44,536 nucleotides of DNA, taken from NCBI GenBank assembly GCA_008632985.1, contig QPGO01000227.1, positions 62,001 to 106,536 of the forward strand. Direction: 5' to 3'. Made by a program: the position numbers and the translations under genes. How positions within the stretch are numbered: the first letter of the stretch is position 1; each line of letters begins with the position of its first letter. The notes below the pieces were generated by a model. It saw only the letters and a program-made list of their open reading frames with translations. It was not told the origin of the DNA and did no database searches. Of the stretch, positions 1-22,484 are shown in pieces. Source of the stretch: Psammoneis japonica (taxonomy: Eukaryota).

Positions 1-2783
1 AATCTATGCCCTCCTTGCGCACGGTCTTCATGAACTCCATGCCAGGTTTTGTTTGCTCCTTAGATCCATCCATCAGGAGTTTCTCTGGCACGCCAAATTC
101 CTGGCAAAACATTTTGAGAGCTTCGCCAGCCTCACTCTTTTTGTCCATGGGATAAATCGCAGCAAAGCATTGCTTGTTTGTTAAGATCTGAGCATGTCAA
201 TTGCCCTCCAGCAAAATCACCTTGCCATCAACCATGTTGGTTGCCCATTCACCCCGTAACCCAGGCTTTGTGAACATCCAATTGGCCCGATGGCGTTGAC
301 CCATTGGCATCAATGCTGACCTGATGAGCTTTTGCACAGTCTTCTTGAGTGCACTTGCTGCTTGCTTGAGTCCTGTGCACCATCGTTCACTCAAGTCAGC
401 AGCCGATGCATCACCATGTCTCTCCTTAGACATGAATGTCTTTGGGAGTGCCAAGTCTTCAGGTCCTTTGCCAATTGTTTCCGTGGTGGAGATCTGGACT
501 GTTGACTCCGATTCCACGTTGACGGCAGCCATGAGCCTTGATTGGACTTGATCGACTCCACAAATGAATCGCTCATTGCAACAGTCCCTGGATTGAGGGT
601 CACTGCAGGCAGGATCAGCTTTGAACTCGTGTGTCAGATTGGCATGGATCGTCGCAATTGACCGAACTAGCTCCATTTCCTCCTCCGCAGATCGTCGAGT
701 TCCAATGGATTTGAACTTGACGGTCTGTGGATCCCAAGGTTGTTGGGAGGTCATCTGGATCTTGGGGCATTCGTGCAATTCCTGCTCTGCAGGAGTGCGA
801 GTTGCCACAACAACATTGGTCCCCACAGCTTCAAGTGGCATCATGAAAGATCTGTCCTCTGCAAGGACACACAGTGGCAAATCAGAGCAGGGGTTGTCCT
901 GAACCTTAACACCAAAGTGCTGCAGCTGGTTTGGGCCAACCAGCGAGTGCTCCATGGAATCCGGCATCCACAAGCCCTCGTGGAAGACCAGAACAAATGT
1001 TGCTCCCGATGTCGGTGACGTCCACGCCGTGGCTGCCGAGACAATTGGGACACTCTTGATGGAATTGCATCCCTCGTTAAAAGGCGATGCATCACATTCT
1101 CGTCCAGAATGACCTGAGAGGGTAAAGTTTTGACCAAAAACAGTGGTGTCAGCATGCGAACCCATTTCAAGGCGTCCATGCTGTGCCTTGCTCATGTCAC
1201 GGATGTGAGTGATTCGTGTGGTGTCAGACCGCGTTGCCGAGACACGCCGTGTCGAGGTGACAACCTCACAGACGCGTTTGTCACAGCCACGTGGGTGCTG
1301 CTCCTTTGATCGATGCGGCTGTCCCCTGCCCCATTGCAGCAACCACAACAAGAAGTTTGTGATGCAACAGAGCAGGGTCCAGCTTGGCAGTCATTTGTTC
1401 TTTCCTCTGTGCTTTTCACTGCGACCACCGAATGCGTCTCCGGCATTGTCTCTGTCTTTGCCGCCAGCCCTTGATTCATCATCGCCAGAATCGGCGCTGG
1501 CATTGGTGTTCAGGGCAGAGATTTTGCAGTTTGCTTCTTGCGACTTGACGGATGCAGCACAGCGTTTGGTTGGTTTGGGTTGTTTGGCAACACCCAGACG
1601 CACGCGCTTGTCGACAACCTTCTGTTTGTCCTCCTCACTCAACTGGTGCCAATTTTTGTGGTGTCCAGTGTCAATGGATCCATCCTCATCATAGATGGCA
1701 CCACCCTCTCTTCCGCCTCCACAGGTGACTGCGGCAATCGCATGACGATGCGCAATCGTCTCTGGAAGGGTGGCAACTTTTGCAGCAAGATGATTGGCCG
1801 CCGTGGTGAACATGATGCCTCCTCCAAACTCATTCTGTGCCTTCAAGGTCTCAACTGCCGCTTGCAGTGATTGGTGCTGCGTCTTCTCAAAAAGCATCCA
1901 TGATTTCTGGGCCTCCGTTTTTGGTTCGTTGTTCTCCTCAAAAATGTCAAACATTTCTTGAAGCTTGTTGACAAACAACTCAAACGGCACAGCGCGTTCA
2001 CTCTTGCAATGGAGGGTGTTCTCCATGCGCTTGGCTTCAGAGATGCGGCGGGAGGCATTCCCTTCTCCCTGGCAATGGTCACACAACGCCCTAAAGTCAA
2101 CTCGTCCGTTCTGCTCATTCTTGTGGTCTTTCAACCATTGCTCACTGGGTGTGCCCGTGGCAAGGGACTCAATGAGCAAATGAACCGCACGAGTGTCAGC
2201 CTTGAAAGCTGGGCCTCTTGGAGGGGTGCACATGCAATGCACTTCTGGACAAAAGTGTTGTGGCCTTGAGGTTCAGGTGCATCGTTTGACGTGTGCAACA
2301 CACTGACGGCACGCCAGAGACTCCTGGCATGATGCCAAGCACATTCGTCAAGCCAGTGCTCCACTTGACCCAATCCTTTTCACTCTCTAACATCCCGGGT
2401 GACACCTCTTTGCTGAGAGAGTCAGCAGTGGTCTTGGTCTGGGAACGGATCTCGGCATGACTGAGTGCCGTCTGGAGAGCAGCACGGAAAGTTGCCTGGT
2501 CAAGCCCATCCAGAGCAGGGTTCTCACTCACACGACCAAAGTCCTGTGCCCAATGGATGAGAGCTTTGAGTCGACGACTGCGGGCCAAACCAAAATGAAT
2601 GCGCCCTTCAGCAACCGTCCTCCCAGCACATGATGACGCAAGAGAGTCGATGTCTTCTTCCTTGAGGTCTTCTAAATTGTCAAAAGACGCAAAGTCCGCC
2701 ATGAGCAAGACTCGTTGAGCTGGATCAACAAATCCGATCCATTCGAGTGCTGTCTCGACAGGATCTGGAGGGGCAGCCGCCAT
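1..2783 (-). mobile_element. Degenerate Ty1/Copia (CoDi-like) LTR retrotransposon gag-pol, running off the window start
   Basis: Gag-like ORFs 2196-2783 and 1391-2242 (frameshifted); protease-like 'RLEMGSHADT' (consensus ELDSHADT); integrase core continues past the TGA at 197-199 ('FCQEFGVPEKLLMDGSKEQ'). Order PR then IN indicates Copia. Almost no Tyr codons. Confidence 0.85.
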
Positions 2784-3381
2784 GGTGGCACCTGTGCCAG
2801 CAGGAAAACAGAGTCATGTGAGAAATCACAAATTAAAAGAAGGATGTCTCGGTCTGTGTTGACGACAACACACAGCCATCAGAAGCATGGAGACTGGCCA
2901 TGTCTCCTCACTGCTTGTGCACTCACTGATGCCAGGCAACGACAATCATCACACACCCTTCGATCGACCGGCGTTCATCGTCACAACCCCGTCATCTTGG
3001 CGCGATCGTCTCTTCACAGTTGTTCAATGCATTTCGTCAAACCAAACCTGAGTCAACGACTTGGCTCTGACAAAGCGAGTAAATCTAGCTGCCGGATGGG
3101 CTCAGCCACTCACAGTCTTAGTGCGATGGCGCGAATGCAACCAATGAGATGCTTCTGGGCCTGTTGCAACTGCAACGGATGCAACAAGTGAAGACCATTT
3201 CGCGGTCATCGGTGTCACTGTCTGCATGCCACATCACAGTTTCTCCACAGCACCTCCCAGCCAGCTAGAGCACACCAGGCAGTCCCTGATGCACTGGATT
3301 TCATTCGCAACAGACAACAAAAGAATGCAAAGCAAGCAAGGCACCAGTGGGTGTGGGGTGTGGGCGTTGGTTGACCAGGCC

Positions 3382-4960
3382 ATGGCGTCTCATAAAAGCG
3401 CATGCGACCATGTTGACATTGCACTTCCGAATCTGCCTTACTTGGAGAAGGCATTGCAGAGGCAAGAAGAAAAATGTTCAACGAGGTGGGCAGCTCATTC
3501 GCACACACCAATTTCTGTGGAAGCTTGGCCGGACTTTGCAGCCAAGAGATGAGAGGCATCACAAAGACCCAAGAACACCCGCGTGATTGGCGCCAATGTT
3601 GGCACAAGCGCACCGCAAGAAAAATTGAAGAAAGTTACTTCAGAAGAGCATGTGACAGTCAATGCAGAGCGTTTGCTCGAGACAGTCTTTGATGGAGTAA
3701 ACGCCGGCTTCGACATTGAGCAGAACAGTGCGTTCACGTTGTCACAGCCAGACCTGGTTGCGCTAAAACAAGAAGGACAACGCATCATTCCCGCGCCTGA
3801 ACACACGTCTCCAGCATGCCGCAAGGCAGTGGGAAGACATGTCATTGCAAACACCGTTCCGTTGTGTGCTTTCGAAACTAAGCCGTTCTGGAAATTCAGG
3901 TTTCTCAAAGACGACAACAGTGCGGAAGCACCAACCACTCTGTTTCAACACCCCAACGGCTTCACTGCTGAAGATTTGAAGAAAAAGAGGCCGCTTCCCG
4001 ATGACTGGGCACATGAAAAAATCAAAGTGTTTCACTTGATTCGTCAAGTTTACGGTCAAATGATCTCTTCGCAGTTGCGGCATGGTGTGATTCACTTGTG
4101 CAAGGTCTCTGGTGGTTTTGCTGCCGCGATTCCAAAGGTGCTCTCAAAATTTCTCGTCCATTTCGAAAGGAAGAGACCTCTCCATCAGCACTTCAGGCAA
4201 TCAAGACGATTGTAGAGTGTGCTGACTTCATCCTAGAGGAGACGCCTCATGCCACCCTGCTTCCGCCGTCAAGGCCCGTCGCAAATCGAGTCCCACGGAA
4301 GGCCCGAAGACGAGAAAGACAGGAGTCGCACCACAAAGGGCATGTCATAACAAGCTCCCGAATCAAGATTGGAAACGTGGTGGAGGCAAAAGTAAGTCAC
4401 ATGCACCATTGGGCTGCTCTAAAGGCCCGGCTGGATTCGCTTCTGGTGTCCACATGTGGGACTGCGAATTGGTGGACTTCAATTCCAATGTCAAGCTCCT
4501 CGCCAGCCAAAAAAACCCATCGGTCCTTATCAAGATGCAGTGCAATACTTGGGCAGAAGATGTTGCGGAAGAGATGGCAAACGAAGCTTCTATGCACAGT
4601 AAGCTCAGTGCGAATCCTAATGTAAAGGATGTAATTGCCGAGTTCTATGGGTTCAGTGCCCATCTTTGAGTTCCCTTGTTGTGCTTGGGAAAGGTAGGCC
4701 CTAGTTTTGAGGACATTGGACTAGAAAACATTGCTCTTGACCTTCGATCATCGGCAGTAGAAAGTTTGCGTCTCCTGGGTGGAGCTGGGCTTGTGCACAA
4801 CGATCTGGATCTCCGAAATATCGTGCAGAGCAAGCAGAACCCGAAACGCGCCAAGATTATCGATTTTGGTCGCTCTGAATTCTCTGATAATAGTAGGCTA
4901 CTCGAAGCTCAGGTCGAGACCCTGAAATCCATTTTGAATCTTTCTCATGATTTTGAATGA
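3382..4960 (+). pseudogene. Frameshifted gene with a C-terminal protein-kinase-like domain, preceded by a QxYGxM...RHGVI segment
   Basis: Consecutive partial ORFs in shifting frames; kinase motifs 'LVHNDLDLRN' and 'KIIDFGRS' in 4676-4960; in-frame TGA at 4667-4669. Confidence 0.6.
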
Positions 4961-6916: not shown

Positions 6917-8085
6917 AATTGTCTACAAGAATGTTCAAAATTTAGTCAAATTAAAGTATGAATAGTATCTTGGCAAAGATTTCTTAAGGATAACCGCCAC
7001 CCACTATACAAGACCAATTTGTCACTCCGAAACTATTGCCGGCGCAACGGTCAATTTCAAAATCACGTAGAAATGAACAAAGAATTTTTGGTATGTCGTT
7101 TCACACGAAACATCCAGATTTTGAAATGAAAATCAACACGAATGAACCATCACATTTCGTCTCATCTCGTCTCACAATTCTCACTTTTGTTCTTCCCTGC
7201 CCATCAAACCACTACATCACCATGAAAGCTTCCCTTGCCTTCCTTCTTCCTCTTGCCAACGTCTGCGTTGTTGACTCGCACTCATTGAGGAAGCATCACG
7301 TTCACGGCGCACGCATTCTTGACGAGTACAGCACTTTGGCAAAAGAAACGCAAACGCATGTAGATCCAGACCTTCTGGGCCTAATCCAACGAGACCCCGC
7401 CTTTGAAATGGTAGCTGCCGATCACAAGTCAACCAGAGAACCAAAGGCCTCCAGATCGCCGAAAACTTCAAGAGCGCCTGTAACAGCACCCGTCGTCAAT
7501 GTCGATTCTCGGTCCTCCAAGTCGCCGGTATCAGCAAAACAAGGAAAGGTTTCAACCAAGTCAAGCACCAAGTCGCCGAAATCTTCCAGTTCCACCAAGT
7601 CACCGAAATCTTCCAGCTCCACCAAGTCACCGAAATCATCCAAGTCTTCGAAATCATCCAGTTCCACCAAATCACCGAAATCATCCAAGTCTTCGAAATC
7701 ATCCAGTTCCACCAAGTCGCCAAAATCATCTAGTTCTACCAAATCGCCGAAATCATCTAGCTCTACCAAGTCGCCGAGTTCATCTAGCTCTACCAAATCA
7801 CCGAGTTCATCCAGTTCTACCAAATCACCGAAATCATCCAGTTCTACCAAATCACCGAGTTCACCCAGTCCCACCGCGGCACCGTCTTTAACTGTATAAG
7901 AACGCTTTAAAGTTTATGACATTTCAGCTACTCTTGGATTAGACCAATGCTCTTGAAGGTGCTCTCTAGAGCACTCGACCCATGCGGTGCTCTTTATGGT
8001 GCTCTACAGTAGCTGACAGAGAGCACTCTGTTGACTGTGCGACAGCAGAGCAGCGCAGATGGACGCATGCATGTGTGTCACTCGA
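6917..8085 (+). repeat. Local duplication unit (upstream region + silaffin-like gene + 3' region); paralogous to ~21321-22472
   Basis: Shared blocks 'acaagaatgttcaaaa', 'taaccgccacccact', 'aactgtataagaacgctttaaagttta', 'gactgtgcgacagca', 'tgtgtcactcgaat'. Confidence 0.85.
7222..7899 (+). CDS. Silaffin-like secreted Ser/Lys-rich protein, copy 1
   Basis: Hydrophobic N-terminus MKASLAFLLPLANV, RIL (RXL) motif at 7312-7320, many KSPK/KSSK repeats (STKSPKSSS units). Confidence 0.7.
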   Translation: MKASLAFLLPLANVCVVDSHSLRKHHVHGARILDEYSTLAKETQTHVDPDLLGLIQRDPAFEMVAADHKSTREPKASRSPKTSRAPVTAPVVNVDSRSSKSPVSAKQGKVSTKSSTKSPKSSSSTKSPKSSSSTKSPKSSKSSKSSSSTKSPKSSKSSKSSSSTKSPKSSSSTKSPKSSSSTKSPSSSSSTKSPSSSSSTKSPKSSSSTKSPSSPSPTAAPSLTV

Positions 8086-10024
8086 ATTGTTTGCATTGGA
8101 CCAATGCGCAAAGAGCCAGACAAAAGGAATTGCTTCCCAATCAAATTAAATTCGGATGAAGTGGCAGACAACATGGAGCCACCACACTTGTTGCTTTTGG
8201 CACCATGTCACATGCTCTGCAGAGTTCTGCGGCCACAGCTCTAAACTTGTGATGCACCGACTGTCACTGAGTGCAGTTGTCATTCTTTGCCAGTGCAAAA
8301 AGGATTGTGTTTGATGAGTCAAAGGTGGCAGTTGACACTGGTGCAAACAATGGAGTCTTTGTGGGTCATTGGACCAACTTTTTCAATGAGGCTGTCAAAC
8401 AAACGGACCTTTTTTCCTTTGCATTTTGACTGCAACAGCAGTGCCAACCAACAATGTGAAGAAGACACTCCATGTGTTGAGAAGGAAGGGATGAGTTGTG
8501 GTTGTGTTTTCAATGCCAAAATGGACCTGCAGCATTCACAGGATTTTGCACAACTTTTGTGCATCACAGAAAGTCGATGCACGCGGTCGCCAAAACAGAT
8601 CTCCAGTGCACAAAAATGACCTTGTTGTGAGCTGATTTAGATGTGGTGAATTTGACGGTGTTGTTTTTGTGTGGAATGTTTTGAGTGCAGGGGAGGGGGG
8701 TCAAAGTGGCCTGAGAATGGGTGTCCCAACTTTGCAGTTGAAAGTCGCTGAAATCTTCATGAGTCTGCAGTTGTTGAGCTGATCAAAAGAGATGAAATGG
8801 AGCCTGCAGACTGGGTGAATTGTGGCGGTTCTGATGGTGTTGTTTTTGTTGTCATGAGGTGGAAATCAGCATCTGTCTCATGCATTTGTGTTCATTTTGT
8901 TGTCGTGTTTTGGGGGTCTGGTGTTGGTTTGTTTCTCACTGAGAAAGCAGCTCCCTGGAAGCATGAATGAATGCGTTCGGTTTTTTGATGCTGGTGTTTA
9001 AGACAATTTTGTGCAGCAGATGCAAGTGTCACATGAATTGAGACAAAGTGTCCATTTGCACATCACCTGGCACCGGAAGAACATGTTTTGTTGACATGAT
9101 GACTTGCACAAGATCATTCTGCCCTCCTTGGGAGTTAGCCAGCACATTTGCACAGCGCTGGACTGCAAACTGCTTTCTTCCCATTGTGATTTGCCAATCT
9201 CCAAGCGCTGGGTGTGACGCTCTTTTTTTTTGCTGACTTGAGCTGAGAGACTGGCTCCACAGCAATTTGACCTTGTCACCACCAAAGACACGCCACTGCA
9301 AACAACCAAGAAAAAAGGCAGCAACAACAATCTCTCATTCCAACAGATGGGCATTGGGGCATGCCCTTTTGCCATTTCTCACAGATGCAGTCCATGTGCC
9401 TCCAACCCCAGTCATTGTGTTGGCAAAGTGACAAGCCATTCTTTTTGGGTGGTGCCTTCAAGCATGACAGAGTGTGGAAAAGGTTTCCAGCTTTGATGGT
9501 TGCTTTCTTCTTCTTTGATGAGTTGACAACTTTCATTGCTGATCAAATTTTTTGAACAGCGAGATTGCTCTGACTGGTCAAGGAGATGTTTGGTGATGGG
9601 AGGACACAATTTGGATGCTTGCAGTGCAACAAGGCAACACAGTCAAGAGGATGTTGCCACCAAATGTGCAAGGAAAAACACTGGCAACCTTGACTTTTTC
9701 CACACCTGCAATTGCCACATTTAAGTGCAATTTTTTGTCACAGAAGATGCCAGTTCAAGTGCCCAAAAATTTCTCCATTCAAGTGCCCCACAAGAGCTTT
9801 GACAGCTCCTGTTTTTTCTTGCTTGCTCAGCAGCCCACAAAACAAAGAGACAAAAGCAAAAACAAAGGGAAGAGCTGACAAGGCCATGGAGGTTCCAAAC
9901 AAAAGCCCCCAATGAGACAGATTCCTTGTGCAGAATTTCTCAAAGTCACCACCAGCACACTCTTTGGCTGCATGGGGAGGTGATTCCTTGCCAAATTCCT
10001 GACTCCAGATGCACGTGCATGAGT

Positions 10025-10966
10025 GGTGTGTTTTCATCCTCTGGGTGAGAAACTTTTGGACACATCACAAGGTTTTCTGCATGTTTCCACTGGTGACATG
10101 CAAACTGGCGCTGAACCTGTGTAAAAATTGAGCTCCACAACAAAGACACATTTTTTCATGTCTTGAACCACAAATTGCGCACACAAAAATGACACCATGC
10201 TGCTGCCATGAACTTGTCCATTTGCACACCAACAGCTGTCAAGACTGAAAAGGCAAAAATGTGGTTGACATTTTGATTTTTGCCATTTGTTGTGCCTTGC
10301 AGGATGGTGGCCTTTTGACTCATGACATTTTTGATGGAGTCAGAGTGCAGTTCATTTTTGGTGTGAGCTCTTTGCACACAATGAACAATGTGCACATTCT
10401 TTCAACAACAGACAGGTGCAACAAAAAAAGCAGAGCAGTCTCTCAAATGTGCCTGAACAACAACAAAGTGCAGTTGGCTGACAGCTTTGCCAAAGATTTG
10501 GCAAAATCACATGATTTTGGCACATTGAGAATCCCACCATCCAGGTTGCTTTGGGCAGGTTGGCTGCATGATGTGGTGCATGGGGTGTGCTTTGCAGCAG
10601 CACAGTGCGTGAAACCAAAAGTGCAATGGAGTGGAGCTCTGAACCACCAATGATTGGATCTGGGACCAGCTCATCAAGCTTGTTCCAAATCTGTGCTCAA
10701 ATGGATCGGAGTGGCTGTCTTTCAATGCATCTGTGCGTCATCCACACGGAGACCAATTTCATCACCAGTGGACACTCCAACTGGCCAACCACCCATGCGC
10801 ACCCTCCAAACAAAGAGAACAATGGCTGGCTTTTCAAAACAAACAGATCTGAGGAAAGAAGAAATGAAAATTTGGGCGACACTCCAGTCAGATTTGTTTG
10901 CACAAAAAGCAAGTTGAGGGAAGAAGAACAGACAAAACGTCTCACCTTCATGCACGTTTCTCACCT
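10025..10966 (-). mobile_element. Diverged, inverted, partly truncated copy of the TIR element at 19031-20349
   Basis: Start 'gtgtgttttcatcc..gggtgagaaacttttggacacatcacaagg' is the reverse complement of that element's right end; 10800-10966 matches its left portion. Confidence 0.8.
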
Positions 10967-11448
10967 TTGAAATCTCACCTTTGCACGTTTCTCTCCTTCA
11001 ATCAAAACACACTGAGCTTCCTCGTTGGAGCCTTCTTTTTTGGAAGAACCCTGGGATGACTTCTCCAATGTCTTTTTGCCTCCAAACAATTGCTTGCATT
11101 GCATGATTTGTGAGTGCCCTTTCCAGCCATCCATGGGGCCCTGAAGGGTGTCCTGACAAGCCTGGGCCACAGCTGTGGTCAAAAAATTGATTCAAGCCAA
11201 TTGGTCAGCATGGTGTTTCCAAAGCAAGGGCACTTGGTGTGACAGCTGTCTGCCCATCCATCAGAAGTGGCATCTGCAGTGATTCCAAGTCCCACGCAGC
11301 TGGCTGCCTGACGTCACTTTCAGTTTGCCAAAATGAAGAAACTGGCACATCAGGGTGCAAAACCCTTTTTTTGGAAACACTTTTGCACAAAACCTCAAAA
11401 ATGACCAAGCAATCATTTGTGGCACATCTCTGCTGAAAAAAAAAAATG

Positions 11449-12835
11449 TGCAATATACAGCTACTAATAAGAGTTAATGTATCACGGCGACGTGTTACAG
11501 CCTTTAAATGTCACAAAGGGCGTGACAAAAACAACTTTTTGTCTGCATGCATACTGCAAATGCCCTGGTGACGGGTTCCAATCCTAGGTGGGACTTTTTG
11601 TGACATTGGGCGCGTAGAATTCTACGTGCGAGCTCCGCAGTAAAATTATTAAGCAATGAAAATGTGAATGATCGCTGACAGAAATAGAGGCAATTTTACG
11701 AACGTATCTCCTCCTCCAAATTTGAAGTACGTTATTTATAGTTTGCCCGGGTATATTCTTTAGACATTAAACAATATACCCAGCGCATTTTTATTGTCAT
11801 AAATGTAGAAAACAGAAAGCCTTTGGCTTCGCAAAAGAGGCAGTGTGGAACAATTTTTTACAATAGAACACGTAGAAATGTACGTGCAAAACATACGACG
11901 GATGACAAAAAATAATTATGTCACAGTCCAGTAGTGCGAGGTCCCACCTAGAGCTGGAACGCGTCTGGTGGCACCTTTTCTGTGTTCAGTGCACAAAAAA
12001 CATGACAGCACCAGACGCCAGAAGCACCATTTGCTCTTAAAAACTTGGTGGCGGGGTGGTGGTGGCAAGTGTTTTTCTTTGCGGTGTGACAGGCTTTTGC
12101 ACCACAAGTGGCCAAGGACATCATGAACACAGGCGCTTGCCACCTCCCACTTCTTTGTCATCATTGCATCTGACGAAATGGTGGGTGGCATCATGTCTGA
12201 TTGTTTGCACACTGAGCTCAGAATTTGCATGCAAGCCACATGATTTTTTCTTTTGCAGCTTGCATGTGATTGCATGAAATCCTGTCTTCAACCCCAATGC
12301 CATGCTTCCACACGCAATCACAGTCCCGCCATTTTTTGCCAAAATGCGTTTCCAGCCAACATGTGTCATGCCAGTGCAAAGTTCCCAACAACATGTGAGG
12401 TCGCAAGCAGAAGGTTGCGTTGGTTGAAGAGCTGTCGCTAAAAATTGCCCCCCCCACGCTTTCACGTGTGATGAAGTTCTCAGCAATGACGCCATGAACA
12501 ACACGTGCCCGGTTCATTCTTGCAAGATGTTGGTTTAAAGAGCAGGAGACTGACAATGCTCACATCTCGTGCACTTTGAGGCTCCATCAGGGGGCAAAAG
12601 TCCAGCCAGTTTTTCCAAAAAATTTGAGTCAATGTGGGATTCAAGACATGTGACTCACTGTGCAATGAAGGGAAATTGACCCTTTCTTGACACCAATGCT
12701 GAATGACAACATCAACACAAGACCCTGCAGCATGCATGCAGACAAAAGGTTGTTTTTGTCACGCCCTTTGTGACATTTAAAGGCTGTGACACGTCGCCGT
12801 GATGCATTGGCTCTCATCAGCAGCTGTGTGTTGCA
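11449..12835. mobile_element. Non-autonomous element bounded by ~110-bp inverted repeats (11449-11558 / 12726-12835), containing a nested MITE
   Basis: The two arms align as reverse complements, differing almost only at TpA sites. Confidence 0.8.
11570..11965. mobile_element. MITE (GAC...GTC termini, 4-bp TSD TGGT), unmutated TpA-rich copy
   Basis: Ends 'gacgggttccaatcctaggtgggac' / 'gtcccacctagagctggaacgcgtc'; TGGT at 11566-11569 and 11966-11969; interior differs from the other two copies. Confidence 0.85.
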
Positions 12836-13953
12836 ACCCGTTTCTCATGGCCGCGATGTTCTGCTCTCCAATCCACGGCTGCTGGCCCCTGTCTGACAAC
12901 TCTGGCTGATCTCTCTGCTGCCACAAATGGGCAAAGCAACCCACCACAACTCAGGTTCAACATTTGCACTTTTGAGATCAATCTGGAGCAGAAAAAGCAA
13001 GACAGAAGCTCAATTCATTGAATCTTGTCATCAAATGGGGTGGTGGCAACAGCGCCATTTTTTGTCAACATTGTTTGACAGGCTCTTCTGATCATTCACC
13101 AAGAATTTTGCAACCAAACTTCCTTGTGTGTTTTCACTCCAGCTCAACTCTCTCCAAACCAACAACATGAAAGTGGAGCCATTGCAGTCACTTCATCATG
13201 TCCTCGAAAGATCCCTTGGACCCAAGCCATTGCTCTGCATGCACAGCAAAATCTGGGGCCGGTGTTCTTTGCTTTCTTGAAGACAGTGACCACAACAGCT
13301 CTGTCTCTGTCTTGCACTCAGTTGACAGAAAACCAAGCTTCTGCACTGGCAAAGCATTGCACCACCACAAATTGATTGTTTGTTGACTGATCTTTGCATC
13401 TCCGTCAGCTTTGACTCAGTGGTGTGCCGAAAATGCAGCGAATGGGTGGTGCACGAAGAACCAGCATGCGAGACAGTGTTGCAAACAACCAAATTGGTGT
13501 GTTCATCAACAACTTGCCACAAAATCAAAATCATGGAGATTGCAGTTGTGCACCTGTCAAACAGATGCCAATTGACAACATGTCAAACAGTGTGCGCTCT
13601 CGCAAAAAACAAAGGTCCAGCAGTTTCAAGTTTCGCAACATTGCAATGACCGCCATCATCGTCAAAAGTTTTGATCAAATTTCTCACAACAGCGCCATGG
13701 CGATGGTCTGCACGCTCATCAGGAGTGAGTGTGCAATGCCAGTTTGGATTTGCTTGGGACCCACAGCAGCTGCAAAGACACATTGTGGCCAAACAAACCA
13801 GACACACAACACACCAGTCAAAGTTGTCGCTCACAAGCCAATCCAGGTGTTTTTGTTGAGTTCCAACTCCAGCTGTCATGCACAATCAACAAGAAGCAGT
13901 TCCCAATGTGCGCCCCCCCCAGATTGACCACAGTGGAGGTGCTGGTGTCACAC

Positions 13954-14385
13954 TGCAGTGTGCCTCGCTGCTGGACAACACGGCGAGACCGTGCACAAGC
14001 CTCTTGCACGTGGCAACGTGGTGTTGTTAACACGCACCTGGGAAGCACGACCACAGGAGGGTGTGGCTCCAGGTCTCAGGCAATTCCAGAAGGATGCCAA
14101 GAGAGCATCCGTGTGAAGCACACCAGCCCGTCGTCTGGCCCACGATGGCAGCGTGATTCCACACGATGACATCACTCGTGCATGGCGCGTGATGGCTTGA
14201 TTCACACAATCAACAATGCGAATGCACGATCGATTTGATGCGATCCAAATGCGAACGAATGGGGATTTGGCAAGATTCCCCATTCGCACGATCCCATTTT
14301 CTCTGCTCCAAACTAGCTCACAATTTTCACAACGACAAAGTCGCAACACATCTTCTTTTTCAGCGCCTGGTGCACACATGGGGCA
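13954..14385 (+). repeat. 5' LTR of the Gypsy element
   Basis: Direct repeat of 20447-20878, same length. Confidence 0.9.
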
Positions 14386-17092
14386 CAGCAATGTCACTCC
14401 CGCATGTTGTGCGAGGCAACGAAATCCACAGAAACGAAACTACGAAATGTTGGCAGGACCGACAAATCTTAAAACGACCATGAAGAAGCGGATTAAGCCG
14501 CCGACTCCGTTCGCACGACCGGAGAAGAAAAAGCTGCAGCAGGGCGAGTGCCAGACGTTCAAGCTGCATGACAACCCCGCTGATCCGGATGGTCCAACGC
14601 ATGAGATGGGCATTCCGCACCTTTCTGCGGCTACATGCGAGACACTCCCAATCTTTCCACGCAACGTGGATTGCGTGCACGAAGGACAAAACATCACGAC
14701 CGGGCCAGCGAAATTTGCCCTCATGCGTGACCCACTGCAGGGCGATGCTCTGACGTCATCCAACAATGCCGCTGACGAGCAGGCACCCCAAACCAATGCT
14801 GCGTGCGCAGCATGCATCGCGAAGCTAAAGGAAAGCATCTTCCCACATGGGGTGGCACTGTTGCAGAAGCGTCATCTGAGGCGCTTCATGCGCAAGCCTG
14901 CAGAGGTTTCTGCTCGTGACTGCGTCGCGAGGGCTGTTGAAGTTAACGACTGTGTCTCTCAGTTTCCACCCGTGACGGAGGATGGAGAAGCACCGGCACC
15001 ATCACCCAATGACAAACTGTGCCATGTGTTCGAGTGCGGTGTGCCGAACACATGGCAGAAGTTCATGACGCTACAGAATTTTGACCCGTTGGCGCATGCC
15101 ATCGCCGAATTCACACAGTTCTGCGAGCGCACCGAGCAGGTCGAGCTTGCCGAAGGTGACAGCGACCAACACACTAGGGTTCCACGTAAGCGAGGACGTA
15201 GAACGGACAATTCTGAGTCGTTGATCACGACCCAACCGAACACCCACATGAAGCGTGTCAAGACTGGACATTCCAGCAACGGAGGCAGCAAGCCCAATGC
15301 AAAACATCGGAATGAGGAAGACGCTGATGCTCTCATCGGATCGAAGGTCAAGGAATTCTTTGCCAATGCTCAGAAAAAGCGCAAGGCACACAAGGAGGAG
15401 CTCAATCACTTCCGTGACCTCAACTCAAGTGATTCCGAAGACTCGGGCACTTGCCGACACGATGCAGGCAGTTTTGACACATTGGGTGAATGCACAAATG
15501 AACAACTGAATCACCATCGTACACGTGTTGTAGGCCAATCCCGCAAACGAGTTAAAAAGACTCATCTTGCTCCAATCTTGCCCACAGCTGTGAATGCCAA
15601 ACATGGCAAGGGCAAGACTCAAACCATTAAGGCACCACTAGATAGTGGCGCCAGCAGCACACTACTCGACAGTCGATACTGTAAACGTCTGCGAAGCCAT
15701 TCAACGGCTGAGACAAACTGGACTACGGTAGCAGGCTCGTTCAGTACGTCTAACGACTGTACCGTTAAATTTTGGTTACCAGAATTATCCGAAACTGCAG
15801 AACTTAAACATACCGTCCACGTACACAACGGAAAGTTGGGCAAGTACGATATGATTATTGGACGTGACATTCTGGAGACACAAGGCATTGATATTGTCTT
15901 CTCTAAACACATGATAGAGTGGCCATTAGTCAATGGAGAAGTACCGATGAGGCACGTAGATGCTACGGTAGAAACCTCCTTCTATCTTCAAGATCCAGAA
16001 GCCTTATCTTCGGAAACCGACCGGATTTCGCGTATTTTAGACGCTAAGTACGCGCCGGCCTTCCTCAAGGACATAACGCGAGGGGCAATAGAACTTTCTT
16101 TAGTTCATTAAAATGACCTTTTGGCACTATTGAAACGCCATGAGTCTCTATTTGATGGGACATTAGGACAATGGAAGGGAGAACCCTACCATATCCAACT
16201 CAAGGAGGGTGTAGAACCATACCACGCTCGTCCGTATAAAGTACCTCGTGCGTACGAAGCTACGCTACGTAAAGAAGTAGAGCGCCTAGTACGTATCGGT
16301 GTTCTCAAACGCGTTAACCGATCCCAATGGGCAGCTCCATCATTTATCATACAGAAGAAAGATTTAACGGTACGCTTTATTAATGATTTGAGAGAGCTAA
16401 ATAAACGGATTAAGCGATTGCCTTATCCGATTCCTCATATCCAAGACATGCTACTTAAGCTCGAAGGCTTTATGTGGGCTACATCACTGGATTTAAATAT
16501 GGGCTATTATCACATCCGATTGGATACTGATAGTAAGAAGCTCTGCACGCTCATCTTCCCGTGGGGCAAGTATGAGATGCAGGTGTTGCCCATGGGATTA
16601 TGTAATTCGCCAGACATTTTCCAAGAACGCATGTCAGGCTCATTTGAAGATCTATCGTTCGTTCGAACGTACTTAGATGACCTTCTCGTCGTGACGAAAG
16701 GCACCCATGAAGATCACCTCAACAAACTTGAAGAAGTTTTGTTGAGAGTCCAGAAAGCAGGACTAAAAGTCAACGCAACTAAATCTCACTTCTGTCAAAC
16801 CCAATTAGAATGCTTGGGTTATCTGGTCAACAGAGACGGAGTGCGACCAACACCCAATAAAGTCGACGCCATCAAGCGAATCGCGACCCCAACCAACAAA
16901 CGCGACCTCCGTTCATTTGTTGGCATGGCGAACTGCTGCTGCGACACGTGGATTAGACGTTCTGAAGTCTTGGCTCCGCAAGCGAGACTGTCAAGTGGGA
17001 GTGGACGTCCGTTGAAGACGAGGCGTTCGAAACCATCAAACGGGTGATGTCGGATGATGTTTTGTTGTCACATCCTGATTTTGATGAACCCT

Positions 17093-17482
17093 GACGCGTT
17101 CCAGCCCTGGGTGGGACTCCGTGTGACATTGGGCCCGTAGAATTCTACGTGCGAGCTCCGCAGTGCGAGAATTTAATCAATGGATGTGTTTGTCTTCAAC
17201 ATCAAATAAACGGCCAAGTTTGTGGTGCAATTGTGCCTCTTGCCACTCGACGTTTTTGCAACTTCGCCTGCCCCACGCGATTCTTAAGATGTTGTAGAAT
17301 CGCACAGCAACAAAAAATGTCAAAAGTTGTTGGACGGATCGCTCAACAAGTGTGCCGTAAAATGACACAAAATGTTGAAAAAATCACGTAGAAATCTACG
17401 TGCGCGACATGCGACGAGACTCAAAAAACTGTCGATGTCACAGTTCAGCAGTGCGAGGTCCCACCCAGACCTGGAACGCGTC
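17093..17482. mobile_element. MITE (390 bp, TSD CCCT) inserted at the start of the Gypsy RNase H domain
   Basis: Termini gacgcgttccag / ctggaacgcgtc; CCCT at 17089-17092 and 17483-17486; removal restores PDFDEPFETHADAS. Confidence 0.92.
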
Positions 17483-19030
17483 CCCTTTGAGACACATGCC
17501 GATGCCTCTAAATGTCAATTGGGAGCAGTTGTGTCCCAAGATGACAAACCCATCGCCTTTTGCAGCAGAAAGCTTGACAGTGCGCAATTAAATTGTGCAA
17601 CAACAGAGAGAGAATTGCCCACCATTGTGGAGATGTTGAAAGAATTTCGAACGATTCTCCTTGGTCATCGCACAATTGCACATGCTGATCATAAAAATCT
17701 CACATGCAAAGCATTCAATGCCAAGCGCGTTGTGTGCTGGCGGTTGACATGCGAAGAATGCGGTCCCGAATTACGCTGTGTCAAGGGTGCCCACAACCTG
17801 GTCGCTGACGCTCTCAGTCGCCTTCGACTGGCACCCAGCTTGCCTTCCGAGGCCAATCCGGATGTAAAAGACACTCCATCGAGTCATCCTTTGCATGAAG
17901 CCTTTAATGCAGACGCGCAAGATGAGCCATCTCTGCCTGTTGGCTTCAAGCGCATTCAAAAAGCACAACAAAAGGACAAGTGCCCACTCTCACGAGCTGA
18001 GGACTCGTCCGACCACTCCATTCGCGCGTGTCGTGGGGGAGGGTCATCACGACAGTCAATCTGTCATAAGGACAAAATCGCAGCACCACAGTCATTGCAG
18101 GTTCTGCCAACTGAATGGCACCACGAGACACTGTGTCATCCAGGTGAGACACGTGCGGAAACATCCATTGCCCAGCACTTCTGTTGGCCTGGTGTGAGGT
18201 CTGCGGTGCATTCTACGAGTGTCAAGTGCGAGCGATGCCAGAAGACAAAACGCCGAACACAGCGTTGTGGGAAGCTGCCAGAAAAGGTCGCAGAGACAAC
18301 TCCATGGGAGACTCTGTGCACAGACATGATGGGGCCACATAAAATTCAAAGACGCGGAAAGGACACTTTGCAATTGTGGGCAGTCACAATGATTGACCCA
18401 GCAACCGGGTGGTTCGAGATTGAAGAAGTGTCTGCGAAACGTGCAGACGTCGCAGCAAACGTTGTAGAACAAACGTGGCCATGCAGACATCCGTGGCCAA
18501 CCCAGGTGGTTTGTGACCGTGGGACAGAATTTGTGGCAGAATTTTGCCAGATGATTAAAAATGACTGTGGGATTTTGAAGAAACCCACAAGCAAACGGAG
18601 TCCACAGGCGAATGCCACAGTGGAACGTGTGCGCCAGACACTTGGTAACATGGTGCGCTCCTTTTCAGTGCAGGACATGGAACTGGACAAAGATGACCCA
18701 TGGAGTGGCATCCTCTCCGCAGTGGCCTTCGCCATCAGAGCTGCGGCACATGCGACCACGCGTGCAAGTCCCACGCAATTGGTCTTCGGACGCAATGCGG
18801 TTTCATCTGTTGCCCATCGTGCCAAGTGGAAGCACACAGAAACCAGAAAGCAGAAGCTTGTCCACTTAAACAACAAACATGAAAATCAGAAACGCAAGGA
18901 GCATCAACACACCGCAGGGCAATTGGTGCTTGTCAAACAGGAACAATCCTCTAAATGCAGTTCTGACAGCTGTGCAGGACCCGCCAGAGTTGTCCGTGTG
19001 TGTGACAACGGCACGTTGCACACCCAGAAC

Positions 19031-20349
19031 GATGTGTTTTCATCCCAGGTGAGAAACGCGCATGCGGAGGTGAGACGTTTCATCTGTCCCTTTTCCGTCG
19101 CCGTGCTTTTTGTGCGAGCAAATCTGACTGGACTTTCCCCCGATTTTTCGTTTCTTCTTTCCACAGACATGTTTGTTTTGAAAAGCCAGCCGTTGTTCTC
19201 ATTGGTTGAAGGGTGCATGCAAGAAAAGCGCTGTCTCGAAAGCGGCATTTTTTGGAGTGAAGCTGACAGCCATCTGCTCGTTGTTGTCATTCTGGTGCAT
19301 TTGAGAGACTGTTCCACTGTTTCTTTCACCGAATCTGACTGCTTTGAAAGAATGTGCGCATTGTTCATTGCATGAAGAGCTCATGCCAAAAAAGAACGGC
19401 GTTCTAACTCTGTCATTTGCACAAGAAAAATTGGGGGGACTGACTTCGCACGTGATTTTTTTGCGCGATCGGCCATTTCAAAGATCGACTGATTTGTCGA
19501 CCTGTGTGGGATGCTTGAGTGAATAAAACAATGGGATTGAAATGGCAGCGTCAAAGTTCAATGTGTGTCCAGTTGTCATGTGATTTGACATGCCCAAGCA
19601 GAGTTAAAGATGAAACATTGACAAAATTTCACCGCTCAAAATGACCAGTTCTGTCTTAGAATAAAACAAAATGGCTGCAACACTGAGATGTTGCCAATGG
19701 CATTGTTCTGCTTTACAACAATGAAACCATCACACTTGCATCTGAGATTCTTTATCCTCACACACCCTCAAAACCGAACACACAACGATTCTCTTGTCGG
19801 CAGCGAAATCTGATGTTGTCGCGCGACCCAAAAGCGTCGTCCATGACGACTCAAAGTGCGGACGATGCATTGCAAGAATCACAGCAACGTGTCATAGAAA
19901 CATTCTTCGTTGTCAGCATCCGGTGTCAAGCAGATGGAGCAGCGCGTTGATGAGAATCCCACTTCGCAAGCTGAGGAAGAGAGAAAGAGGCATCAAAAAT
20001 GTCATGAGTCAAAAGGCCATCCATGAGGCACAACAAAAAACAAAGATCAAATTTTCAACCACATCATCGCACTGAGCGTTGTCTTGTTGACCTGTCTCAG
20101 CATTCTCACCTTCTCAGTCACAACATCCGTTGGTGCAAGAATGGACGAGTTCATGGCGACGGCATGGTGCCATTTTCGGTTTGCGCGAATTGTGGCCCGT
20201 GGTTCGAGACATGGAAAAATATATTTTTGCTGTCATGGAGCTCGTTTTTTACTAAGATTTTTTTGGCACTAAATGTACGTCTCATGTAGAAACACGTAGA
20301 AAACCTTGTGATGTGTCCAAAAGTTTCTCACCTGGGATGAAAACACATC
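19031..20349. mobile_element. Non-autonomous TIR element (27-bp TIR gatgtgttttcatcccaggtgagaaac, TSD GAAC) inserted in the integrase C-terminus
   Basis: Perfect TIRs; GAAC at 19027-19030 and 20350-20353; removal restores 'GTLHTQNGALTDAHNLRQIAPC'. Confidence 0.92.
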
Positions 20350-20446
20350 GAACGGAGCGCTGACAGATGCGCACAATCTACGGCAGATTGCACCCTGTCA
20401 CCAGTGAGACATTCTGTCACTTGGCGGCCCTGATCATGGGGGAGTG

Positions 20447-20878
20447 TGCAGCATGCCTCGCTGCTGGACAACACGGCGAGACCGTGCACAAGCCTCTTGC
20501 ACGTGGCAATGTGGTGTTGTCAACACGCACCTGGGAAGCACGACCACAGGAGGGCGTGGCTCCAGGTCTTGGGCAATTCCAGAAGGATGCCAAGAGAGCA
20601 TCCGTGTGAAGCACACTGGCCCGTGGTCTGGCCCACGATGGCAGCGTGATTCCACACGATGACATCACTCGTGCATGGCGCGTGATGGCTTGATTCGCAC
20701 GATCAATGATGCGAGCGCACGATCGATTTGACACGATCCAAGTGCGAACGAACAGGGATTTGGCAAGATTCCCCATTCTCACGATCCCATTTTCTCTGCT
20801 CTAAACTAGCTCATAATTTTGACAACGACAAAGTCGTAACACATCTTCTTTTTCAGCGCCTGGCACACACATGGGGCA
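20447..20878 (+). repeat. 3' LTR of the Gypsy element
   Basis: Direct repeat of 13954-14385, preceded by a polypurine tract. Confidence 0.9.
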
Positions 20879-21627
20879 ACACACCAAGGCTGATCCCCCG
20901 CAGGAGCAACCACCCCCACACACTGCTGCTCAATGATCCGTGTCACTGACAGAGCAGCAACAACACAAATGATGGAAAATCAATGCCTTGCTCTAGAACA
21001 TGAGTTGAAACAAGCAAATGTGGGTGAGACAAGGGCAGGCAACAAGACCCCCCCCCCAAAACACACCAAAACACAACGACGGTGCTGTCACACGTGCAGC
21101 CGCAACTCAAAGCACACACTTGTGCAATTTTCTCACCATCACAATGCCACAAGTCACACTTGTGAGTCGAAACAAGCATTGCAGAGACAAAAGCAATTTT
21201 CACCGTTGACAATCTTTGAATTTGTAAGCTCGTTGCAAAAGCACCCGACCGGACAACGATTGATTTTGGGCGGATGGGCTGAAAATCAAGTCCATCCACA
21301 TTTGAAAGTCCCATGACCCATTGTTCACAAGAATGTTCAAAATGAAACATAATTCAAGAATGCATAATTTATACGCAAACATCGAATATGAATAACCGCC
21401 ACCCACTTTACAAGACTAATTTGTCCTCCGAAACTGTTGCTGGCTCAACGGGCAAATTCAAAATTACGTAGAAACGAACGACGAATCTGCGGTATGTCGT
21501 TTCACCGAAAAATATAGATTTTCAAATGTGAAAATCAACACGAATGAGCCATCACAATTTGTCTCACAACTCGCGTCTCACAATCCTCACTTTTGATCAC
21601 CCCAGCACCATCAAACCATACATCACC

Positions 21628-22236
21628 ATGAAAGCTTCGCTTGCCTTCCTTCTTCCTCTTGCCAACGTCCCCGTTGTCGACTCGCTCACATTGAGGAAGC
21701 ATCCCGTGAACGGCGCACGCATTCTTGACGAGTACAGCTCCTTGGCAAAAGAGACGCAAACGCATGTGGATCCAGACCTTCTGGGCCTAATCCAACAAGA
21801 CCCCGCCTTTGAAATGGTAGCTGCCGATCATGAGTCAACCAGAGAACCAAAAGCCTCCAGGTCGCCGAACGTCGATGCCGATTCTCGGTCCTCCAAGTCG
21901 CCGGTATCAGCAAAACAAGAAAACGTTTCAACCAAGTCAAGCACCAAGTCGCCGAAATCCTCCAGCTCCACCAAGTCGCCGAAATCTTCCAGCTCCACCA
22001 AGTCACCGAAATCAACCAAATCATCGAAATCATCCAGTTCCACCAAATCACCGAAATCATCTAGCTCTACCAAATCACCGAAATCATCTAGCTCTACCAA
22101 GTCGCCGAGTTCAGCCAGCTCTACCAAGTCGCCGAGTTCAGCCAGTTCTACCAAGTCGCCGAGTTCATCTAAATCATCCAGTTCTGCCAAAGCACCGACA
22201 TCCTCACCCACTGGGCTATCGACTATAGAGCCCTAG
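21628..22236 (+). CDS. Silaffin-like secreted Ser/Lys-rich protein, copy 2
   Basis: Paralog of 7222-7899 with the same signal-like start, GARIL motif and STKSPKSSS repeats. Confidence 0.7.
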   Translation: MKASLAFLLPLANVPVVDSLTLRKHPVNGARILDEYSSLAKETQTHVDPDLLGLIQQDPAFEMVAADHESTREPKASRSPNVDADSRSSKSPVSAKQENVSTKSSTKSPKSSSSTKSPKSSSSTKSPKSTKSSKSSSSTKSPKSSSSTKSPKSSSSTKSPSSASSTKSPSSASSTKSPSSSKSSSSAKAPTSSPTGLSTIEP

Positions 22237-22484
22237 TAGTAGTAACTCAGAGAGACACCGTGAGTAACTGTATAAGAACGCTTTAAAGTTTACGATATTT
22301 TGCAGCTACAGTACTCTTTGTTTCGACACATACTATTATAGCTACTCTTGGATAAGACCAATGCACTTGATGGTGCACAAGAGCACTCTAGTGACTGTGC
22401 GACAGCATCATAAGTTATTTAGGGCCCTACGTACAGTAGTTGTCGCCGGATGGACAAATGTGTCACTCGAATAGCCTAATTTGT

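Follow-up and report, generated by a model that had tools for sequence, protein, structure and literature searches.

Locus and tract structure

The window, by which we mean the whole stretch of 44,536 nt of Psammoneis japonica DNA analysed here, contains a Ty3/gypsy retrotransposon whose LTRs lie at 13954-14385 and 20447-20878. These direct repeats align without gaps over 432 bp with 93.5% identity and carry TG...CA termini. The 4-bp target duplication ACAC is present at both ends of the element, and the pol domains follow the order RVT_1, RT_RNaseH, Integrase_H2C2 and rve (Pfam). The pol homologues of the element are 47-57% identical. The features of the window are given below, with tract boundaries to the nearest 250-bp bin.

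1-4500: TA-purged tract, 0-4 TA per 250 bp
8001-11250: TA-purged, CpG-depleted tract with fragments akin to the 3' part of the element
12001-21250: TA-purged tract with the element and its flanks, broken only by the island at 15520-16680
13950-13953: target-site duplication, left copy, ACAC (direct reading; matches 20879-20882)
13954-14385, plus strand: 5' LTR, 432 bp, TG...CA ends, TA observed/expected 0.09
14386-15500, plus strand: leader and gag-like part of a long frame-2 ORF, in the TA-purged tract
15520-16680, plus strand: spared island, the protease-RT part, 88 TA per ~1.16 kb
16112-17047, plus strand: reverse transcriptase ORF (Pfam RVT_1, E = 6.8e-26)
17093-17482: nested MITE-like insertion, 390 bp, partly TA-depleted
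17483-19375, plus strand: RNase H and integrase (Pfam RT_RNaseH, Integrase_H2C2, rve), same frame as the RT
20438-20444, plus strand: polypurine tract GGGGGAG, ending 2 bases ahead of the 3' LTR (direct reading)
20447-20878, plus strand: 3' LTR, 432 bp, TA observed/expected 0.18
20879-20882: target-site duplication, right copy, ACAC
35001-37750: TA-purged tract with a MITE copy and a HAD-like pseudogene
35126-35508: MITE copy within this tract
36712-37224: host-type HAD-hydrolase-like pseudogene within this tract
44001-44536: TA-purged tract, beginning only, at the window end

Sharp-edged TA-poor tracts make up ~42% of the window, with a TA density of 5.8/kb over 18,647 bp of purged tracts versus 47.1/kb over 25,411 bp elsewhere. 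The purged tracts contain repeats and the host genes are spared; two repeat segments inside the purged tracts, 15520-16680 and 11251-12000, are unpurged. TA loss within the RT ORF begins around 16640-16811, and the RNase H-integrase part is heavily purged (TA observed/expected 0.12). The older tract at 8050-13950 has a CG observed/expected ratio of 0.34. Sequence context affected retention: ATAC is retained 0 times in purged tracts compared with 186 occurrences in normal DNA, and TTAA is over-retained 4-fold. A Pfam search of the gag-like part gave no match, and none of the 59 ORFs of the purged tracts searched against Pfam reached the curated cut-off. The two sub-threshold matches were a HAD-hydrolase fragment (E = 1.6e-4) and a conotoxin family (E = 0.006), the latter taken as chance. 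Many long false ORFs arise in these tracts because the stops TAA and TAG have been lost; a stretch of 8 kb is overlapped by 36 ORFs that are each 80 aa or longer.

Differences between the LTRs

Of the 432 aligned positions, 28 differ between the two LTRs, 25 by a transition and 3 by a transversion, corresponding to 20 events: seven adjacent TG/CA swaps, one AT/GC doublet, four TA/CA singles, two CG/TG singles, two CA/CG singles, one other A/G single and the three transversions. The initial annotation had described repeated TG/CA swaps or TA loss between the LTRs, and the alignment confirms this. All eight of its examples were located (13959, 14028, 14077, 14124, 14260, 14309, 14321 and 14344), and three further swaps were found at 14214, 14239 and 14371. 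The swaps run in both directions, four one way and three the other, and the LTRs retain only 1 TA and 25 CG in common. When 25 random transitions were placed on the 5' LTR in 200,000 simulated trials, swaps averaged 0.29 with a maximum of 4; restriction of the transitions to pyrimidine-purine steps raised the mean to 0.94 and the maximum to 6, compared with the seven observed. The LTR class counts fit a TA loss with a maximum-likelihood value of r = 0.84 per LTR copy, which implies ~18.5 TA at insertion. Since TA-derived sites make up 18 of the 28 differences, LTR-divergence dating is inflated here, as had been anticipated; removal of these sites lowers the differences from 28 to 10, an inflation of ~2.8-fold. 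No other copies of the LTR were found within the window, and an exact LTR 22-mer had 0 matches in metagenome_contigs and 0 in viral_contigs.

Ancestral state of the mutated sites

The polarity of the changes was assessed with 120 protein homologues of the same element, which provided 444 conserved columns. The element mismatches 78 of these columns; 35 mismatches are explained by a single TA>TG (22) or TA>CA (13) change and five more are composite and include a TA change. CpG transitions account for six of the 78, compared with 40 involving TA, so that CG to TG/CA is not the main change. The conserved Tyr columns at 15845-16670, inside the spared segment, were all retained (8/8), the one at 16670 included. 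At 16811-19091, the 16 conserved Tyr columns now encode Cys (10), His (4), Phe (1, TTT) and Tyr (1), i.e. 14 of the 16 have become TGY or CAY, and Arg (CGY) was found at none of the conserved Tyr columns. The CGN-type Arg columns were intact in 20 of 23 cases. The seven Thr>Ala changes are all preceded by T, and none of the 46 columns in which His, Cys, Gln or Trp is conserved shows a CA>TA or TG>TA change. An initial assignment of the Cys at 16811 to the YxDD Tyr of the RT was dropped, since the translation places it in a later LEYLGY-type motif. As host control, the MsrA gene, whose best match in the protein collection is 83% identical, retains 13/13 Tyr and 8/8 Arg. In metagenomes, 79 of 79 related gypsy loci lack a TA purge, with TA observed/expected values of 0.57-1.06; these loci give a baseline composition only, because mutated copies would escape a search by the peptide patterns employed.

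Repeats outside the coding sequence gave the same polarity. The nested MITE has 25-nt terminal inverted repeats and CCCT at either flank, its depth in the public sequencing run X1 is ~10x that of adjacent bins, and it belongs to a family of three copies, of which the unpurged third served as outgroup. At four TG/CA swaps between the MITE copies, the third copy reads TA in two cases and CA in the other two, with no instance of CG (0/4). The purged copy retains none of the 10 TA present in the unpurged copy, while seven of the latter's 10 CG sites remain CG in both other copies, and the purged copy changed two. A normal tract contains one arm of an inverted repeat and a mutated tract its partner; nine of the 11 differences between them pair TA in the former arm with TG or CA in the latter, with none in reverse. 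Because the Tyr/Arg columns, the His/Cys/Gln/Trp columns and the third MITE copy agree, the ancestral state at the mutated sites was therefore TA and not CG, as read from proxies that stand in for the seven unpolarised LTR swap sites themselves. Four independent proxies, namely the protein outgroups, the MITE family, the inverted-repeat arms and the LTR class counts, support TA.

Run X1 contains only 55% of the sampled words of the window. Of its 563 variant places, 525 are transitions, and 10,021 X1 contigs map to the element at a likeness of at least 80%. Among the 40 of 574 variant rows listed, none of which falls on an LTR swap site, the TG/CA state of the window is found at 35-82% of depth where other copies have TA. 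The CpG transitions of this copy that X1 polarises are at 14204 (CG>CA), 15350, 15390, 15392 and 15415. At 17290-17291 the window reads TG, yet 39-40 of 40 X1 contigs read CA, which for some swaps implies either two steps in succession or a difference between subfamilies.

Discussion

The changes described above run from TA to TG or CA, fall on both strands, postdate the insertion, lie in distinct tracts and show a bias in sequence context. For this 44.5-kb window we consider it very probable that they reflect a DNA-level hypermutation of repeat tracts. The initial annotation had proposed chromosomal targeting of both strands after insertion, which is supported by the outcomes along the element, where 22 TA>TG and 14 TA>CA changes are interleaved; a runs test for strand processivity found no signal in their order (16 runs, P = 0.28). 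In the proposed sequence of events, the retrotransposon, with two identical LTRs, would have inserted into older repeat DNA. A process acting on the DNA of the chromosomal tract would afterwards have converted TpA to TpG or CpA by an A:T>G:C transition at the A of 5'-TA on either strand, with a preference for TA followed by a pyrimidine. CG never results because a site is no longer TA after one strand has been hit. Each LTR resolved its sites independently, so that a single ancestral TA now appears as TG in one of them and as CA in its partner. The process has come close to saturation (~84-94% of TA sites lost per copy) and would be limited to sharp-edged repeat-rich tracts, sparing the host genes.

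Decay of methylated CpG would likewise remove a palindromic dinucleotide of silent DNA by transitions on either strand and inflate divergence estimates. The swap sites would then have been CG at insertion, with the top-strand C deaminated in one LTR and the bottom-strand C in the other. Deamination of CpG indeed yields TG or CA, this copy does carry CpG transitions, and the older tract is low in CG. The 25 CG shared by the LTRs, together with the 4-5 single losses, nevertheless predict only 0.08-0.125 swaps under independent CpG decay as opposed to seven. CpG is largely intact in the element, with 20/23 Arg columns kept as against 15/16 Tyr columns lost outside the spared island, while TpA has been lost at a far higher relative rate. 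CpG decay also leaves the near-absence of TA in the LTRs (1 shared) unexplained and is at odds with the absence of CG at the swap sites of the third MITE copy; we regard it as very unlikely. A quite unlikely source of the pattern is the assembly, if a modified base at TA in silent chromatin were miscalled by long-read base-callers and the repeats left unpolished. Strand-specific miscalls would fit the sharp domain-like tracts, the context dependence and the lack of CG outcomes, and the limited coverage of the window by X1 points the same way, with some window letters (e.g. 14204 and 20742) in no X1 contig. Against such an artefact, the element reads without a frameshift over two tblastn segments, 509 and 540 residues long, and the outcome switches between TG and CA within 6 nt, unlike a read-strand majority. 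Among the listed rows at 15161-15415, the share of X1 depth that reads TA at the TG/CA sites of the window is only 24-65% and never 100%. The X1 contig depths cluster at ~65-70 and ~30, which would fit accurate diploid reads, and the transversions, CpG loss and nested insertion in the same tracts together indicate real age.

Editing before integration, either A-to-I editing of the element RNA or cDNA deamination in the course of reverse transcription, can draw on the ADAR/ADAT-type preference for A>G after U/T. Hypermutation of retroelements by APOBECs is on record in the accessible part of PMC4866542. RNA hyper-editing would affect one strand and leave the LTRs identical, but here the coding strand shows both A>G and T>C (22 versus 14), the seven LTR swaps were resolved in opposite directions and the MITE is affected. 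A DNA-transposon derivative and a host-type pseudogene share the changes, which further excludes RNA editing and RT error, both already argued against in the initial annotation; flanking non-element DNA is altered as well. Editing before integration is thus extremely improbable. A comparably negligible likelihood attaches to LTRs that were never identical, the element being recombinant or gene-converted between diverged members of its family. This family is large and diverse in X1, and the spared island could be a conversion patch. The ACAC duplication, however, is matched at both ends, the same seven sites would still need a change in both lineages, and the Tyr losses in the adjoining coding sequence are incompatible with functional lineages. 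Selection against TA was dropped, as invariant residues are lost through the changes; GC-biased gene conversion lacks TpA specificity, and 2-bp inversions cannot yield TA/CA singles or the Tyr>Cys/His pattern.

With regard to the agent of the TpA-directed hypermutation, we infer an enzyme or a mutagenic DNA mark that targets repeated or silenced chromatin; no enzyme emerged as a candidate. We favour a chemistry in which adenine at 5'-TA(Y) is deaminated to hypoxanthine. The same pattern would be expected if the thymine of TpA were modified so as to mispair with G. Adenosine deaminases with a preference for a 5'-U include TadA/ADAT2-3 (tRNA A34), the fungal mRNA A-to-I editing activity and ADARs. 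The changes in the window resemble theirs in being A>G, in requiring T/U before the A and in preferring a following pyrimidine (tRNA anticodon loop UAC). Those enzymes act on RNA, whereas the substrate here must be both strands of chromosomal DNA. APOBECs cause G>A on one strand before integration. Context-specific, clustered transitions that inactivate LTR elements are a shared trait, but the changes reported here are A:T>G:C, occur on both strands after integration and extend to a DNA-transposon derivative.

Repeat-directed hypermutation as genome defence is known from fungi, with C>T changes. RIP hits duplicated DNA and leaves single-copy genes alone, is premeiotic and requires a homologue of RID-type DNA methyltransferases. 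According to the accessible part of PMC2621366, it converts C:G to T:A mostly at CpA and thereby creates TpA. The process in the window resembles RIP in that only transitions occur, on both strands, in a dinucleotide-specific and near-saturating manner and in sharp-edged repeat tracts, in which the coding capacity of transposons is destroyed and non-transposon sequence is touched as well. It differs in its reverse flow, from TpA to TpG/CpA, with RIP-direction changes at 0 of 46 columns, and in its host, a diatom and not a fungus. Diatoms possess a RID-related DNMT4 of unknown function, as stated in the accessible part of PMC9998398, where the term 'deamination' is absent. In the part available of a paper on LTR dating in diatoms (bioRxiv 10.1101/2025.10.24.684338), the terms dinucleotide, hypermut and deamin are likewise absent. 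A literature search found no paper on TpA-directed A:T>G:C mutation of repeats.

It is conceivable, though on balance we would not assume it, that the hypermutation represents a dedicated diatom defence which edits chromosomal dsDNA at 5'-TA(Y), A to G via inosine and near saturation, in repeat or silenced tracts. If true, this would be a functional counterpart of fungal RIP with the opposite chemistry and would imply that adenine in DNA is deaminated by a natural, previously undescribed enzyme, or that a mutagenic base modification specific to TpA exists. Such a diatom counterpart would be a second, chemically distinct solution to genome defence and would point to an unknown DNA-editing activity of interest for base-editing technology. 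For diatom genomics, the changes mean that LTR-divergence ages are too old, that transposon proteins in purged tracts are hard to recognise, and that repeat copies turn sequence-unique, which alters the assembly and read mapping of repeats.

Element structure and differences between its terminal repeats

The element is bounded by a gapless direct repeat of 432 bp (13954–14385 versus 20447–20878) with 93.5% identity.

Terminal features of the element
Both repeats: TG at the start, CA at the end
13950–13953 and 20879–20882: flanking 4-bp duplication ACAC
Immediately 5' of the 3' LTR: purine run GGGGGAG

The TG...CA termini, the ACAC on both flanks and the purine run thus identify a single insertion. 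Between the LTRs, frame 2 encodes a reverse transcriptase, an RNase H, an integrase zinc-binding domain and an integrase core, in this order, and full-length homologues matched this frame in two uninterrupted segments of 509 and 540 residues. The element at 13954–20878 is a Ty3/gypsy LTR retrotransposon. A lone in-frame TAA (16109–16111) lies between the gag-protease ORF and the reverse transcriptase ORF; the frame is otherwise continuous, and this TAA may be an original read-through stop or a later mutation.

The eight LTR differences quoted in the initial annotation were all present in the sequence, and three further swaps, that is sites reading TG in one LTR and CA in the other, were located at 14214, 14239 and 14371. 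Altogether 28 of the 432 positions differed, by 25 transitions and 3 transversions that group into 20 events.

Classes of the LTR difference events
Adjacent TG/CA swaps: 7
AT/GC doublet: 1
TA/CA singles: 4
CG/TG singles: 2
CA/CG singles: 2
Other A/G single: 1
Transversions: 3

A count of seven swaps greatly exceeds the random expectation. In 200,000 simulations, 25 random transitions in the 5' LTR yielded 0.29 swaps on average and never more than 4; when transitions were limited to pyrimidine-purine steps, the average rose to 0.94 and the highest count to 6. AT/GC adjacent doublets recurred, between the LTRs at 14222–14223 and against other copies at 15276–15277, and a single TA hit does not account for them. 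At 17290–17291 the window reads TG versus CA in 39–40 of 40 contigs of X1, a public sequencing run covering the element, which requires two steps in one lineage.

Distribution of TA loss along the window

TA dinucleotides were mapped in 250-bp bins.

TA content of the mapped tracts
1–4500, 8001–11250, 12001–15500, 16750–21250, 35001–37750 and 44001–end: purged (TA-depleted) tracts, mostly 0–3 TA per 250 bp, at most 6
Elsewhere: remainder, including every recognisable host gene, mostly 6–26 TA per 250 bp

TA density was 5.8 per kb across 18,647 bp of purged sequence versus 47.1 per kb across 25,411 bp elsewhere. In the purged tracts TG and CA together amounted to 204.0 per kb, versus 142.8 elsewhere, and CG to 38.2 versus 51.7 per kb. 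TA loss is confined to sharp-edged tracts and is not a genome-wide pressure. Host ORFs had TA observed/expected ratios of 0.39–0.74. Among them, a methionine-sulfoxide-reductase (MsrA) gene with 76–83% identity to diatom transcriptome proteins, Odontella among the best matches, kept all 13 conserved Tyr and all 8 conserved Arg. The window further encodes an HSF-type DNA-binding domain, along with other eukaryotic genes. These host genes assign the stretch to a diatom. Related elements from metagenomes had ratios of 0.57–1.06 in 79 of 79 cases, in a search biased to intact copies.

Two islands of normal TA content interrupt the purged sequence. The one at 15520–16680 (protease to reverse transcriptase) accounts, over about 1.16 kb, for 88 of the 150 TA in the element, with sharp edges and a low mismatch rate in conserved columns, and may be a later conversion patch or a protected segment; the other spans 11251–12000. 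Window-wide, the TA sites surviving in mutated tracts were mostly TTAA (4.0-fold over-represented) and CTAA/TTAG (3.4-fold). ATAC/GTAT had no survivors there versus 186 occurrences in normal DNA, and GTAC, ATAG and ATAT were likewise rare among surviving sites.

The purged tract 8001–13950 is also strongly CpG-depleted (CG observed/expected 0.34, TG and CA 1.76 each) and looks like older debris which has lost both TA and CG; it contains reverse-orientation fragments akin to the element's 3' part (10027–10966). Unpurged paralogous segments at 6918–8047 and 21320–22407 flank the entire 8–21 kb repeat tract. They share 84% identity over aligned columns, differ by 76 transitions versus 93 transversions and carry 9/27-bp tandem repeats in long ORFs.

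Ancestral state of the swapped sites

A swap can start from CG or from TA, either way with one change per LTR, and the initial annotation had named CG in outgroup copies as the state that would speak against TA. No second copy of the LTR was found within the window, an exact LTR 22-mer had no match in metagenome or viral contig collections, and the 40 of 574 X1 variant entries covered here did not include the swap sites. Polarity was therefore inferred by four routes, namely LTR class counts, protein outgroups, other repeats of the window and sequence context.

In the LTR pair, 25 CG sites were kept in both copies and 4–5 were changed in one, for which independent decay predicts 0.08–0.125 swaps. 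One TA site was kept in both copies, four in one, and seven were swapped; these counts fit a per-copy loss of r = 0.84 from about 18.5 TA sites at insertion.

As protein outgroups, 120 homologues (47–57% identity) were aligned to a pol translation read through its stops (written as X), from which the nested insertion had been removed. The window pol departed from them in 78 of 444 columns conserved at ≥80%.

Classes of pol mismatches in conserved columns
Single TA>TG: 22
Single TA>CA: 13
Composite including a TA change: 5
CpG transition: 6
CA>TA or TG>TA: 0
Rest (transversions, other transitions, mixed): 32

Every one of the seven Thr>Ala changes was preceded by T; the codon is ACA in all four cases of Ile>Thr and TCA in all three of Leu>Ser. 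No conserved His, Cys, Gln or Trp column (46 in total) had turned into a TA codon. The 32 Arg columns comprised 20 that still had CGN and 9 with AGR, with TGC or CAC in only 3. For Tyr the alignment was lengthened to 15452: between 15845 and 16670 all eight columns were kept, and between 16811 and 19091 one was kept, ten had become Cys (TGY), four His (CAY), one Phe and none Arg (CGY).

The other repeats of the window are the following.

Repeats and related features compared in the window
17093–17482: MITE-like insertion, 390 bp, in pol between reverse transcriptase and RNase H, CCCT on both flanks
35126–35508: other MITE copy, in a mutated tract
11569–11975: other MITE copy, partial, in a normal tract
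11449–11558: left arm of a 110-bp inverted-repeat pair, in a normal island
12726–12835: right arm of the same pair, in a mutated tract
36712–37224, + strand: HAD-superfamily-hydrolase-like ORF, in a purged tract

The nested insertion has terminal inverted repeats of 25 nt (92% complementary) and thus derives from a DNA transposon. It differed from the copy at 35126–35508 by nine TG/CA swaps over 383 bp. At four of these the third copy read TA twice, CA twice and CG never, within 169 reliably aligned columns. None of ten TA sites of the third copy was kept in the mutated copy at 35126–35508, and seven of its ten CG sites were kept in both other copies. The two inverted-repeat arms showed 11 differences, all transitions, of which nine had TA in the normal and TG or CA in the mutated arm; the reverse was never seen. 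The X1 depth over the nested MITE was about ten times that of the bins next to it, and each of its borders had loose ends.

As for context, four of the seven LTR swap sites, taken as TA, fell into the four most susceptible context classes, and all five TA sites surviving in at least one LTR have A or G next; both numbers are small. Taken together, the LTR class counts, protein outgroups, window repeats and context show, indirectly, that the swapped sites were TA; the counter-evidence named in the initial annotation did not turn up by these routes.

Timing, strands and nature of the mutational process

The LTRs of a single insertion begin identical regardless of their RNA history, so their differences arose on DNA. 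At the seven swap sites the 5' LTR reads TG in four and CA in three. In the element interior 22 TA>TG and 14 TA>CA outcomes are interleaved, sometimes 4–6 nt apart, and a runs test detected no strand clustering (16 runs, P = 0.28). The initial view of a post-insertion mutation of both strands is borne out. The DNA-transposon derivative, the HAD-like ORF and non-element flanks were affected as well, which together with the DNA origin of the LTR differences and the two directions excludes RNA editing or reverse transcriptase error as the main cause, as had also been proposed. TA had turned into CG in none of 24 Tyr columns, in line with a hit on one strand removing the target on the other. The process thus delineated is an A:T>G:C mutation at 5'-TA on either strand, post-insertion, tract-confined, near saturation and with preference for TA followed by a pyrimidine. 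The nested MITE was only partly TA-depleted, which fits an insertion later than that of the element and a process accumulating over time or in rounds.

Long-read miscalling of a modified base would mimic much of the TA>TG/CA pattern, yet it is a very improbable source of it. The aligned 3.1 kb of pol contains no frameshift, and TG and CA outcomes switch at short range. Where other copies carry TA at a listed TG/CA site, X1 backs the window letter at 35–82% of depth, and TA never reaches 100% of depth at any listed TG/CA site of the window. Single-contig depths of X1 grouped near 65–70 and near 30, apparently reflecting accurate diploid reads, and 525 of its 563 variant places were transitions. 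Among biological alternatives to TA-directed mutation, methyl-CpG decay was a minor component only, and APOBEC- or ADAR-type editing of retroelement intermediates was rejected as the process.

The agent of the TA-directed mutation would be an enzyme or a mutagenic mark directed at repeated or silenced chromatin, with deamination of adenine to hypoxanthine as the favoured chemistry; a TpA thymine modification mispairing with G would leave an equal pattern, indistinguishable here. tRNA A34 deaminases and fungal mRNA editing favour T before and a pyrimidine after the edited A, which the strict preceding T and the following pyrimidine of our sites resemble. The layout is also like that of repeat-induced point mutation (RIP) of fungi, which is a C:G>T:A change at CpA that makes TpA (PMC2621366); this change was tested and absent here, and the flow is reversed. 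Diatoms possess DNMT4 proteins akin to RID, a factor of fungal RIP, which are described as of unknown function (PMC9998398), and nothing ties them to a TA>TG/CA chemistry. Our literature search found no account of TpA-directed A:T>G:C mutation of repeats, and the accessible part of a 2025 preprint on diatom LTR dating is silent on dinucleotide bias and hypermutation (bioRxiv 10.1101/2025.10.24.684338). The process belongs with repeat-directed, context-specific hypermutation, and there is a fair chance of a categorically new activity behind it.

Consequences for dating and annotation

The expectation that LTR dating would be inflated was borne out: 18 of the 28 differing positions are TA-derived, and the divergence without them is 10/432 (2.3%) versus 6.5%, so ages would be about 2.8-fold too high. 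Because TAA and TAG stops are lost, purged tracts are filled with long false ORFs. The 8-kb stretch 13500–21500 is overlapped, counting both strands, by 36 stop-to-stop ORFs with a length of 80 aa or more, and one of them, of 163 aa, spans the entire 5' LTR. Transposon proteins, in turn, escape profile searches because their Tyr, Ile and Leu codons are lost.

The HAD-like ORF has 36–48% identity to six homologues and weak Pfam and PDB matches; at two positions where three or four of the six have Tyr, it has His and Cys. It probably represents a host-type gene reduced to a mutated pseudogene, in which case the process would reach beyond transposon sequence. In purged tracts of this diatom, stop loss probably gives rise to false gene calls.
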